Below are positions 5,575-7,795 of a stretch of 38,159 bases of DNA, piece by piece. The stretch spans positions 1-38,159 of IMG/VR virus record IMGVR_UViG_3300045988_123528. One strand, given 5' to 3'. How positions within the stretch are numbered: position 1 is the stretch's first letter; the number at the start of each line of letters is the position of its first letter. A program made the translations under genes and the position numbers. The notes below the pieces were generated by a model, which was given only the letters and a program-made list of their open reading frames with translations, was not told the DNA's origin and made no database searches. This stretch comes from a virus (lineage: Duplodnaviria > Heunggongvirae > Uroviricota > Caudoviricetes).

Positions 5575-5937
5575 TTAACGACCTGCTGCGCGGAGTTTTC
5601 CGTCAGGTTCACCGGCAAGAGTCAGTAATTGTCCCTGGTCTTCCTGCAGAATAGTCAGGCGACCACCGCGATTGACATACATCGGCGTTTCGGTGGTGTC
5701 TTCTTCGGAAATTTTCCCGCGGTTAGTCGGGCGAACATATGAGAGTTTGTGTTTGATTTTCACACGGTTCTCATCAAATGGTTCGATTTCCAGGTTGAGC
5801 GAGACCTTACCTTTGGTTTTCGTGTTCATCACACCGGAAGCGACTTCACTGAGAACTGCGCCGATTTTGGTTTCAAATACGCCGCCGTCCAGCTCCCCAA
5901 TAAATGCCTGCACATCAGTACTGCGTTCGCTAGCCAT
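5575..5937 (-). CDS. YfdP-like hypothetical protein
   Basis: Start chosen at MASERSTD with SD GAGGAG 7 nt upstream; the track ORF extension to 6255 is GC-rich non-coding-looking. Confidence 0.55.
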   Translation of the reverse strand: MASERSTDVQAFIGELDGGVFETKIGAVLSEVASGVMNTKTKGKVSLNLEIEPFDENRVKIKHKLSYVRPTNRGKISEEDTTETPMYVNRGGRLTILQEDQGQLLTLAGEPDGKLRAAGR

Positions 5938-6374
5938 TTTGCTGCTCCTCATCATATCGACCCTGCAAGGCCGATTAGTTTCTCCACAAAACAGAGAAGA
6001 ACACCTGCGGCGGCAGCCGCCCGGATGGATTGGGTTATGAGCCCGTCGTCCGGTGATGCTCTTCTCTGTTTTGTAAAAAGGACGGTACCAGCCTGAAGCA
6101 AGGGTACAAACTGGTACCGCCAGGACTACACACAGCATAAAGTTGTGGTGCCGGGTGCCTCCCGGTGCCTGGCGAAGGTTGCACACCAGACGGGTGGGTA
6201 TCCACAGAAGGTCGACTGTCAGCCTCAACCTTAACCCGCGTGCGCTGAGCCGCATTCACCACAACGCTAAGGATTCTCTTTGGTTGAAAATACTTAGCTG
6301 TTATGTGCCTGTCTTTTCACCACTTCAGGCTCGGTGGTATCCTTTTAAGCCCGTATACATAAAAGGAAAATCAA
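5938..6374. other. Non-coding, hairpin-rich block (possible structured RNA or regulatory region)
   Basis: About 430 bp with no credible ORF; 17/18 bp inverted repeat at 5987-6003 / 6057-6074; perfect 9 bp inverted repeat CGGTACCAG / CTGGTACCG at 6083-6119; GCGGC..GCCGC hairpin. Confidence 0.4.
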
Positions 6375-6620
6375 ATGACTTTTGATGAAAAAGAACTTGA
6401 TAATGCAATTAATAAAATCATCGTAACGTCGCTCTTTTCCTGTCTCAGCGACACTCAGCAGAAACAGTTCTACGAATCGGCTTTCAACATGATCGAGCGT
6501 TGTTGTTTCTGCGATGCCGACGAGTTACCTGAAAAAATCAGGAAACAGTTGGCTGATGCTCTTCGAGTGCGACTTTCTGACCAATTTTCTGAAATGTACT
6601 CTCCGAATTTGGACAAATAG
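6375..6620 (+). CDS. Hypothetical small acidic protein, antisense to the leftward early operon
   Basis: 81 aa; SD AAGGA 6 nt upstream of ATG. Confidence 0.45.
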   Translation: MTFDEKELDNAINKIIVTSLFSCLSDTQQKQFYESAFNMIERCCFCDADELPEKIRKQLADALRVRLSDQFSEMYSPNLDK

Positions 6621-6813
6621 AAAAAGGCCATTTCCATTCAGGGTCTGATGGAAATACTTCAGCCTGTTCCAAAGCACGGCGTAAAGAGAACACAACTCCA
6701 GCCATAATCTGATGTTTCCCATTGGTCCAGCTATCGCCGCTCTGATCTACAGGGGCGGCTATGTCGTATGACCAAACGACTTCACAGTTATTGTTTAAAA
6801 TCTGGACTTTCAT
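6538..6813 (-). CDS. Hypothetical protein, first ORF downstream of PL (N-gene position)
   Basis: 91 aa; weak SD; overlaps 6375-6620 convergently by 83 bp, so one of the two may be spurious. Confidence 0.35.
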   Translation of the reverse strand: MKVQILNNNCEVVWSYDIAAPVDQSGDSWTNGKHQIMAGVVFSLRRALEQAEVFPSDPEWKWPFSICPNSESTFQKIGQKVALEEHQPTVS

Positions 6814-6931
6814 TTTGTTCTTTAACCTCCAGATACGGGCGTTTAATTGCCCCGCCGAACAGCTCTTTTCCGCAATAGCTGCAATGTCTTTCGCGAATCA
6901 GCCTGCGCATTCACCACAACTCTAAAAACAA

Positions 6932-6984
6932 ATGTAGGATATCCAACATGCAAGTGTCAAGAGTTTATGTTGGTTATCCTACAT
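6932..6984 (-). promoter_or_regulatory. OL/PL: two 18 bp operator palindromes flanking a leftward TTGACA -35
   Basis: ATGTAGGATATCCAACAT (6932-6949) and ATGTTGGTTATCCTACAT (6967-6984); TGTCAA at 6954-6959 is TTGACA on the minus strand. Confidence 0.65.
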
Positions 6985-7046
6985 GAAAAGATAGGCTCAT
7001 AAAAAAACCGGGGATACCCCGGTTTTGCGATAGTGAGGAAGATGTG

Positions 7047-7700
7047 TCAAAAATCCATTATTACTTGTTTGACAAGACCAACTATTCTGCAGTTCTCACC
7101 GCATTCAATAGTTTTATAGTTAGGATTTAGTGGGACGAGATACCTGTTCGGCCAGTCCTCAACAAATTTTTTGAGTGTCGCTTCTTGCCCACCATTGATA
7201 TGGGCAACAACGATTTTTCCGTTAATACACTCTGTATCAATAATATCTGGCTCTACGATAACGATAGAACCTTCTGGTATCGATGGTGAGCCGAGGGGAT
7301 TGGTCATTGAATCACCACGGACCCGTAGTGCAAATGCCATTTCTGATACAAGGGCGGTAGTATAAACCCACTCTTCAGCATCTTCTTTCCTGACACCAGG
7401 CTCCGTCATTGTCCATGAACCCGCCTGAACCCACGAGATGAGGGGGACTTTTTTAACTGCGAATATTTCAGGTTTTAGATTTATCTTTGGTTCAGGCGAG
7501 CCTTTTCCGCTAACAAGCCACAGAGGATCGCATTTAAGTGCGTTGGCTAGGGCTTGAAGGTTGGCTCCATTTGGTTGGTAGTCGTCCTTTTCCCATCCAG
7601 TAACCGTGACACGGTTCACACCAGTCAAATCAGCCAGTGCTTGTTGTGTCAGGTTCAGTTCTTTTCGCCTTTGGCGAATACGATCACTCATGTTCATCAT
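7047..7700 (-). CDS. cI: CI-type prophage repressor (N-terminal HTH, C-terminal S24 LexA-like peptidase)
   Basis: HTH LTQQALADLTGVNRVTV; Ala-Gly site (VQAGSW); GDSM Ser and LKKF Lys of the S24 dyad. Confidence 0.85.
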   Translation of the reverse strand: MMNMSDRIRQRRKELNLTQQALADLTGVNRVTVTGWEKDDYQPNGANLQALANALKCDPLWLVSGKGSPEPKINLKPEIFAVKKVPLISWVQAGSWTMTEPGVRKEDAEEWVYTTALVSEMAFALRVRGDSMTNPLGSPSIPEGSIVIVEPDIIDTECINGKIVVAHINGGQEATLKKFVEDWPNRYLVPLNPNYKTIECGENCRIVGLVKQVIMDF

Positions 7701-7763
7701 GTAGGCAATCCTACCACATGCCCATGTAGGATTCTTGACATTGGCATGTTGGATATCCTACAT
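7698..7763. promoter_or_regulatory. OR region with PR (rightward) and probable PRM
   Basis: Operator copies at about 7724-7741 (ATGTAGGATTCTTGACAT, contains TTGACA -35) and 7746-7763 (ATGTTGGATATCCTACAT); a degenerate third copy overlaps the cI start. Confidence 0.6.
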
Positions 7764-7795
7764 TTCTGCTTAACGTAATTTAACGGGAGACAGAA

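Follow-up and report, generated by a model that had tools for sequence, protein, structure and literature searches.

STnc100, also detected as EcOnc27/sRNA103 in enterohaemorrhagic Escherichia coli, and the PasD1/PasD2 pair of enteropathogenic E. coli E2348/69, reported to be structurally related to STnc100 (Zhu, Shabalina and Storz, bioRxiv 2026), are viewed in the literature as prophage-encoded, Hfq-dependent small RNAs (sRNAs), and have attracted interest since copies flank Shiga-toxin genes. STnc100/EcOnc27 and PasD1/2 are abundant, Hfq-bound or Hfq-dependent and terminator-ended (PMC4104026, PMC8550237, PMC12370729, PMC12711010, bioRxiv 10.64898/2026.05.13.724894), and their size is consistent with about 200 nt, with many partners recovered by RIL-seq (sequencing of ligated, interacting RNAs; PMC4104026, PMC8550237, PMC12711010, bioRxiv 10.64898/2026.05.13.724894). 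Here we compare with these RNAs a block at positions 5938-6374 of IMG/VR record IMGVR_UViG_3300045988_123528 (the window, the whole stretch of 38,159 nt, which is an E. coli lambdoid prophage). The block is flanked by yfdP (orf32 of Shigella phage SfV) and by a small variable region adjoining a cI-like repressor gene, and the region has the same sequence in strain WP4-S18-ESBL-09 and shares 99.5% identity with SfV. On the strand transcribed from the early-left promoter pL (the minus strand, on which all RNA elements below are given unless stated otherwise) the block holds a composite RNA module in place of a gene, and its 124-nt core (6265-6142) is, as judged from sequence and in a broad sense, a divergent member of the Rfam STnc100 family, which includes E. 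coli PasD and EcOnc27.

No Rfam model matched the window at gathering thresholds. Searched in E-value mode, STnc100 (RF02076) aligned over its entire length (model positions 1-206 of 206) with positions 6287-6072 at 39.5 bits (E 1.1e-6), a score that does not reach the gathering score of 47 bits, and the relatives of the core in phages P1 and phiES15 and in a tRNA array (locus L087) matched the same model at 33-41 bits. Our own covariance model, built from canonical and SfV-type copies, scored the window at 82.4 bits (the window row is part of its seed, and its E-values are rough owing to a short calibration); run with filters off, it found no second intact copy in the window, the next best score being 11 bits. 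STnc100 and the window copy have in common the prophage setting, an intrinsic terminator at the 3' end, the invariant CACCGGGAGGCACCCGGCACC, the closing helix with GAAU after it and the bulged A of the first hairpin, and the motifs GGUGAAU, H1 with its bulged A and CACCGGGAGGCACCCGGCACC were all found in the 71-copy alignment (A2) described below.

The fold was obtained from a MAFFT alignment of 71 diverse cores using RNAalifold and explicit pair counting. Five nested helices are supported: the closing helix P1 (6265-6257 with 6150-6142), H1 with a conserved bulged A (6253-6249 with 6243-6238, A6241 bulged), P2 (6237-6234 with 6195-6192), helix B (6191-6184 with 6174-6167) and P4 (6165-6161 with 6155-6151, CCGGG-AGGCA-CCCGG with AGGCA as the loop), which abuts the 3' strand of helix P1; the junction AAU (6256-6254) lies between P1 and H1. 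All variable helices covary across the alignment. The 26 nested pairs were formed in 93.4% of the cells (38-47% in slid controls), double changes were counted in 243 cells (35-93 in the controls), and the covariation score of 0.379, compared with at most 0.118 in slid controls, was reached by none of 500 shuffles. The P4 stem and the inner four pairs of helix P1 were set by the search pattern, so that their invariance in the alignment is by construction, although a first scan that constrained only the 5' motif still gave an almost invariant P4. The core also contains a pseudoknot, in which the strand just 3' of H1 (6232-6226, AAGGUUG in the window) pairs with the loop of helix B (6181-6175, CAACCUU). 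The duplex is AAGGCUG/CAGCCUU in phiES15, UGGUUAU/AUAACCA in phage P1, and UGGUUAA/UUAACCA and UGGUUAG/CUAACCA in loci L041 and L118, and it is quite different again in the canonical copies. With the test limited to the region after H1, a run of at least 6 bp was present in 84% of the sequences against 28% for cross-sequence pairing (Mann-Whitney p = 1e-35), and 70 distinct compensating duplexes were counted among 126 distinct combinations; a per-sequence shuffle test that took in all of the upstream region gave no information. In the alignment to the Rfam STnc100 model, the model's structure line does not include this pseudoknot.

The minus strand of the whole block folds at -183.9 kcal/mol (z = -7.0, equalled by 0 of 100 shuffles), whereas the z-score of the plus strand is only -3.6. 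A preliminary description of the block, made from its letters alone, had read it as structured RNA rather than junk, and this is strongly supported by the covarying helices, the pseudoknot and the STnc100 homology; the narrower roles it named, processing or antitermination, may or may not apply. Three of the checks it proposed point the same way: folding is beyond chance and asymmetric between strands, the covariance-model search returned the full-length STnc100 match below threshold, and the paired helices covary in the 71 diverse homologues. The informative strand, that of the pL transcript, and the terminator had both escaped it. The three inverted repeats on which it relied were all recovered where it had placed them, namely the arms 5986-6010 and 6050-6074 (25 nt, 84% complementary, the inner 18 nt matching at 17 of 18 positions across a 53-nt spacer), a perfect 9-bp repeat (6083-6091 and 6111-6119, 19 nt apart) and a GCGGC..GCCGC hairpin (6007-6020). 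These hairpins are real but are not the main content of the block, since the core (6142-6265) lies between and to the right of them, and the statement that none has a terminator-style U-tract was mistaken, because on the minus strand the 9-bp repeat is part of a 15-pair stem followed by UCCUUUUUAC.

This stem is a Rho-independent terminator (6121-6075; stem 6121-6107 with 6097-6083, U-tract 6079-6075). It reads GGCGGUACCAG..CUGGUACCGUC followed by CUUUUU, and folds at -24.4 kcal/mol (z = -4.9); a simple terminator scan overlooked it because the loop exceeds 8 nt. The 3' end of the RNA is predicted near 6075. Core and terminator are joined by a single-stranded linker of 20 nt (UUUAUGCUGUGUGUAGUCCU, 6141-6122), a candidate seed or Hfq-contact region, in which the motif UGCUGUGUG[U/A]AGUC is kept in SfV, ST64B and phiES15 despite their differing terminators: ST64B and phiES15 carry different, non-homologous stems with U-tracts at the same position. 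Many canonical copies likewise have a strong terminator 7-45 nt downstream of the core (the scans of flanking terminators and open reading frames (ORFs) were crude and noisy, and only strong recurrent cases were used).

On its 5' side the core is abutted by a hairpin, P0 (CUAAGUAUUUUC/GAGAAUCCUUAG, 6298-6266, recognised as an inverted repeat), the arms of which covary by subtype (AAGAGCAUUCU/GGAAUGCUCUU in phage P1, AUGAAGCGCAUUUC/GGAAUGCGCUUCAU in phiES15 and a 15-bp version in L078). Its 3' arm reads (A/G)UGCUCUUU(C) in phage P1 (L004, about 1566-1576), L087, L041, L118, L078 and lambda (L252, 1047-1056), the core of the boxA sequence that NusB/NusE recognise in nut sites and rrn operons, here base-paired; the window has a degenerate version, AAUCCUUAG, that is base-paired as well. 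The boxA consensus of nut sites is (C/U)GCUCUU(U)A and precedes a short boxB hairpin, and no boxB-like hairpin of a lambda-type nut site was found at the module. Further upstream lie GGCACAUAACAG (6309-6298) and, 5' of it, a flank hairpin CCACC..GUGG (6338-6319), also present in Cronobacter phage phiES15; the hairpin marks the limit of homology to SfIV, PhiR29, L057 and L124 and is the right-hand edge of the mobile module.

Beyond the terminator follows a long three-way-junction hairpin of 90 nt (6074-5986). It has arms of 25 bp and, at the apex, two hairpins, of which GCGGC..GCCGC is one. It folds at -54.7 kcal/mol (z = -8.6), its base overlaps the U-tract of the terminator, and one G:C to A:U compensation lies between it and its ST64B counterpart. 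The sequence that leads into it, ACAAAACAG plus AAGAGCAU, is similar to the lead-in of the P0 hairpins, and the form ACA[A/C]AACAG plus AAGAGCAU is common to the long hairpin, the P0 hairpins and the lambda late leader. The remainder of the block up to the yfdP start codon (ATG at 5937, from the annotation) holds, as read from the sequence, a short hairpin and the yfdP ribosome-binding site GAGGAG (5985-5938, with GAGGAG at 5950-5945). Terminator, long hairpin and yfdP are common to mEp460, cdtI and many Stx2 phages; mEp460, which at first seemed to be without a core, has a more divergent core ('type M', 26.8 bits) at the same position as the core of the window, which is of the SfV/P1 type ('type S').

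The placement of the block inside the early-left operon, as originally proposed, is correct. A promoter scan identified pL at 6960-6931 (TTGACA-18-TACATT, minus strand), upstream of the block and directed along the strand that carries the RNA module. The promoter pR (7735-7764) has the same hexamers and the same 18-bp palindromic operator, ATGTTGGATATCCTACAT, three copies of which occur at 6932-6949 and 6967-6984 (pL) and at 7746-7763 (pR), and a 40-nt stretch at pL is an 88% inverted match to the pR region 7733-7772. The cI-like repressor gene (7047-7700, minus strand) ends at a clean terminator (AAAACCGGGGTATCCCCGGTTTTTTT, about 7002-7027, minus strand).

Comparison of sequences revealed a truncated remnant of a second, mEp460-type (type M) family member at 6829-6913. 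It begins 15 nt past the -10 hexamer of pL and breaks off at the ribosome-binding site of orf33; its 85 nt differ by one base from the first 85 nt of the full mEp460 copy, and this change weakens the H1 stem. The 5' strand of helix P1, GAAU, the damaged H1 and a variable hairpin are retained, helix B, P4 and the 3' strand of helix P1 are missing, and the covariance model gave the remnant no score. The order along the pL transcript is remnant, orf33 region, intact core. In L105, an IMG/VR locus whose immunity region is the same, an intact SfV-type core is fused to pL at a distance of 15 nt, and terminator, long hairpin and yfdP come next; an early-left transcript can therefore begin with the core itself. 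Set against L105, the orf33 region of about 650 bp looks like a recombinational insertion between two family members, and the arrangement in the window, on this comparison of sequences, looks like the product of recombination between them.

The intervening region contains two convergent ORFs, 6375-6620 (plus) and 6538-6813 (minus), which overlap by 83 bp and have full-length matches to PHROG families of unknown function (phrog_3311 and phrog_3195, respectively). The Prokaryotic Genome Annotation Pipeline (PGAP) chose the plus-strand ORF and the SfV authors the minus-strand one (orf33), and tblastn with each of them returned four near-identical phage records only. Within orf33 there is a terminator-like hairpin on the minus strand (6621-6656; UAUUUCCAU..AUGGAAAUG then GCCUUUUU) that coincides exactly with the end of the plus-strand ORF. 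It either counts against orf33 or represents an attenuation point on the pL transcript.

The core is widespread among phages and beyond. BLAST searches against phages found the central part of the block in Salmonella phages ST64B and 118970_sal3, in phiES15, where it lies upstream of kil, and in the P1-like phages P1 and SJ46, where it immediately precedes tciA in the ban operon, which is under C1 control. When IMG/VR was scanned with the 5' motif as a pattern, 120 loci with 41 distinct cores were obtained, a looser pattern applied to one genome per species gave at least 120 further loci, and the two scans together yielded at least 153 distinct cores (at least 251 loci in all) across Enterobacterales, with genera including Kosakonia, Enterobacter, Klebsiella, Raoultella, Citrobacter, Pantoea, Erwinia, Rahnella and Buttiauxella. 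Tandem copies 150-450 nt apart were seen in eight loci (L156, L157, L168, L169, L186, L191, L225 and L041), and L041 has type-M and type-S copies side by side, each with its own P0 hairpin. A genuine isrK RNA also lies in the rightward early region of ST64B (L003, 5231-5307, plus strand); with Rfam RF01394 it reaches 64.3 bits, more than the gathering score.

The neighbourhoods of these cores fall into several layouts. Among canonical copies, 23 of the 33 loci with a promoter-like site (search space 160 nt) have a -10 hexamer ending 4-15 nt (mode 8) before GGUGAAU; SfV/P1-type copies have the P0 hairpin where the canonical copies have the promoter. Q antiterminators, belonging to three Pfam families, and DUF1133 are represented among the ORFs upstream of the core (10 of 85), and holins, belonging to four, among those downstream of it (17 of 87), which gives the layout Q - late promoter - leader - terminator - holin known from lambda. 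Copies of the P1 type lack a terminator and are placed 30-36 nt ahead of an ORF start. In at least 17 species the core is part of the 5' untranslated region of a kdgM-type porin gene and lies 37-204 nt ahead of that gene (5'UTR; L136, L147, L148, L150, L151, L159, L161, L166, L183, L195, L204, L211-L213, L216, L222 and L246). The two such loci examined for context (L150 and L161) have non-phage neighbours, with a pectate lyase gene beyond the porin gene in L150 and typA nearby in L161, and no strong terminator was found between core and porin gene in six loci examined. Most copies of this chromosomal subfamily have [G/A]CCA after the closing helix, and AAAACATCATTTCATTTT, which lies upstream, resembles a KdgR operator. 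Finally, cores occur among tRNA genes in P1-like IMG/VR contigs: one array (L087, 4263-4809) reads Asn, Tyr, Thr, P0 plus core and, after 5 nt, tRNA-Ser, and in L078 (5346-6007) the core follows a tRNA.

For the function of the module we favour, at a confidence evenly divided between acceptance and doubt, the explanation that it yields a stable, terminated Hfq-type sRNA acting in trans, while it also gates the read-through that supplies yfdP-int. This sRNA reading is adopted because the relatives STnc100/EcOnc27 and PasD1/2 are Hfq-type sRNAs and a terminator is present here. After induction of the prophage, RNA polymerase starting at pL would transcribe through the module, and many transcripts would stop at the intrinsic terminator 20 nt past the core (6075-6079). 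The 5' end would be trimmed near P0 or, in relatives whose core directly adjoins pL or a late promoter, would simply be the start of the transcript. The product would be a compact, nuclease-resistant, U-tailed RNA of roughly 190-260 nt, which we infer to accumulate as a discrete species, to bind Hfq and to act on other RNAs like its characterised relatives. Polymerases that read through would continue into yfdP and the rest of the early-left operon, and the long hairpin would then form in the new 5' region of the message, probably as a processing or stability element.

Several observations weigh against this explanation. The core is kept without a terminator or U-tail 36 nt upstream of tciA in phage P1, in the tRNA array of L087 and in the 5'UTRs of the kdgM porin genes, so that an Hfq-type 3' module cannot be the reason for the existence of the core. 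Invariant junction nucleotides and a pseudoknot are not typical of an sRNA that acts by base pairing, and the Rfam score lies below the curated threshold. Neither the promoter scan nor inspection gave evidence of a promoter within the module, and the RNA would therefore be silent in the repressed lysogen, unlike PasD.

Some of these observations lend themselves to a second explanation, the main rival and a serious one, possible though not likely in our judgement, by which the core would act in cis as a leader domain, like a riboswitch, by binding a protein or by modifying RNA polymerase or Nus factors, and would set how much transcription or translation passes to the downstream genes, the short RNAs being by-products. 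The core occupies a leader position, 15 nt after pL in L105 and at a short distance from the -10 hexamer in most canonical loci with a promoter-like site, and the copies between Q antiterminator genes and holin genes, those shortly upstream of ORF starts in the P1 type and those in the porin 5'UTRs all fit the same role. A single core is combined with varying downstream 'platforms' (terminator, ribosome-binding site or none), which is the pattern of riboswitch classes; in L105 no protein can be made before the first early-left terminator; and the invariant junctions and the pseudoknot look like a binding pocket, not a seed, giving a conserved aptamer-like core beside a transcription start as expected of riboswitches. 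However, inspection found no alternative pairing between core and terminator that is conserved across subtypes, a weak similarity between the B stem and the terminator in SfV being absent in phiES15. The downstream genes are heterogeneous (holins, porins, TerB, Kil and yfdP), one copy lies directly before a tRNA gene, and copies downstream of Q that antiterminated on their own would turn on the lysis genes of a lysogen. A bolder form of it, to which we give little credence, holds that the STnc100/PasD 'sRNAs' are themselves leaders ended by termination and belong to a class of pseudoknotted cis-regulatory RNAs, widespread but not recognised before, that bind a ligand or factor. If this were true, the class would form the first ~125 nt of pL, Q-controlled late and chromosomal kdgM transcripts across Enterobacterales and would decide whether polymerase or ribosomes proceed, and in SfV-type phages the core would gate the whole early-left operon, replacing N/nut or put.

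The copies among tRNA genes bear on a third explanation, which seems to us distinctly unlikely, namely that the core is a processed stable RNA released in the manner of a tRNA from polycistronic transcripts and serving as an Hfq-independent mimic, decoy or protein sponge. It is consistent with the core between tRNA-Thr and tRNA-Ser in L087, only 5 nt from the next tRNA, with the core behind a tRNA in L078, with the tRNA-containing ban operon of phages P1 and SJ46 and with the occurrence of tandem copies. The order of the helices is also like that of a class-II tRNA cloverleaf, P4 abutting the 3' strand of helix P1 as a T-arm does the acceptor stem, one subfamily ends in ..CACAC[G/A]CCA, and T-arm-like remnants precede several copies. 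Yet no core was recognised by ARAGORN or by the Rfam tRNA and tmRNA models, the signatures of a T-loop and a D-loop are missing from the core, CCA is absent from most copies, and the subfamily that ends in CCA is the porin-gene 5'UTR element. An identity as tRNA or tmRNA was rejected, ARAGORN being negative in the window and over the cores and the Rfam tRNA models matching only the true tRNAs in the flanks. The copies preceded by T-arm-like remnants include several lambdoid ones (for example GGUUCGAUUCC in phage 118970_sal3, L006, about 2390-2420), and the sequence evidence suggests that the module originated in a phage tRNA cluster.

Phage HK022 offers a further precedent, since its putL/putR elements are, like the window module, structured RNA at the start of the pL transcript, before terminators and with no N gene between (PMC9378689). 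If the core were a put-like processive antiterminator, the nascent RNA would bind RNA polymerase and make it ignore terminators as in HK022. The core of L105 and the remnant in the window both lie immediately behind pL, as putL does (PMC9378689), a terminator follows the core with no N-like gene ahead of it, and the ST64B repressor is annotated as similar to HK022 cI. Nevertheless, we consider this very improbable. Our covariance model, with filters off, found no match in the whole HK022 genome at E <= 0.1, and identity with put was dropped on this ground; put is about 70 nt with two stems, whereas the core is 124 nt with five helices and a pseudoknot; put occurs in both the pL and pR operons, whereas of the core there is a single intact copy in the window and no copy in its pR operon; and for members downstream of Q, autonomous antitermination would be lethal in lysogens.

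With respect to coding potential, the original judgement that the block holds no credible ORF stands. A 75-aa minus-strand ORF had no Pfam or PHROG match, and a 49-aa ORF matched only an unannotated PHROG of 62 aa (phrog_33599) that lies over a conserved hairpin. Published annotations disagree on strand and frame: PGAP places a 'frameshifted' hypothetical-protein pseudogene over 5952-6262, SfIV runs yfdP across the block, PhiR29 has a plus-strand ORF there, and SfV leaves the block empty save for a 'putative terminator' at its right edge. Sequence changes among relatives keep the RNA helices, not the reading frames, and the commonest polymorphism (6190) alternates between a G:U and a G:C pair in helix B. 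That the block is the wreck of a protein-coding gene with incidental hairpins, as PGAP implies and as the 'hypothetical protein' entries in several phage records and the phrog_33599 match might be taken to indicate, is hardly credible, given an ORF without family, compensatory helix substitutions and a domain found again between tRNAs and in 5'UTRs, places that hold no such ORF; the 'frameshifted pseudogene' and over-extended yfdP annotations are artefacts.

Among other known systems, the 5' arm of the terminator (6107-6121) includes GGCGGTA, the first seven bases of the RfaH ops element, and identity with ops was rejected by eye, the arm GGCGGTAC having lost the critical G8 of GGCGGTAG (position 8 is C). 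The same arm (UGGCGGUACCAGUUU) matches at 14 of 15 positions UGGCGGUAUCAGUUU, presumably the corresponding part of DicF. DicF of the Qin prophage is an sRNA in a repressor-controlled early operon upstream of a cell-division inhibitor, a setting comparable with the phiES15 core upstream of kil; it has no counterpart of the window core, and its Rfam model (RF00039) was rejected at 15.7 bits against a gathering score of 48 (E = 3), the match covering the terminator hairpin only.

The lambda late leader (pR'-6S RNA-tR' and the stretch before S) has the order Q, promoter, leader of about 200 nt, terminator and holin seen in many copies of the family. Right after the U-tract of tR' (L252, 43800-45400; element at 980-1145) it has CACAACAG, a P0-like hairpin (GUAAGAGCAUUGAG..CCAGUGCUCUUUC) and then a helix (GUUGUGCUGAAU..64 nt..CAGCACAAC) with a compensatory change from G:C to C:G in the closing helix. 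From these letters the lambda late leader looks like the holder of a reduced relative of the module; its 64-nt interior lacks H1, B and P4, it scores 9 bits with our model, and it lies after the terminator, whereas the family core lies before it.

The family is thus much broader than the Rfam model captures, in the number of distinct cores and loci and in the genera concerned. It is defined by five helices, a pseudoknot and near-invariant junction nucleotides, is tied neither to a terminator nor to prophages, and often forms the first part of repressor- or Q-controlled transcripts; fold, spread and position at the transcript start together point to a specific molecular partner. Within this family, PasD1 and PasD2 are prophage-encoded, terminator-ended and abundant and need Hfq for stability (PMC8550237), a comparison with the window made by description only; their genes lie in the late region near Q and LpxR, whereas the window copy lies in the pL operon and not near Q. 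STnc100 is found downstream of stx2 or Q and is preceded by a promoter, whereas the window copy is found upstream of yfdP and is preceded by the P0 hairpin, and the H1 sequences differ (GCGGCUCAGCGCACGC in the window, CCCCCUAAGCGGAGGGG in STnc100). The element of the window would accordingly be best described, at the level of sequence, as a relative of STnc100 set apart from the canonical copies by its H1, by its position in the pL operon and by P0 in place of the promoter.

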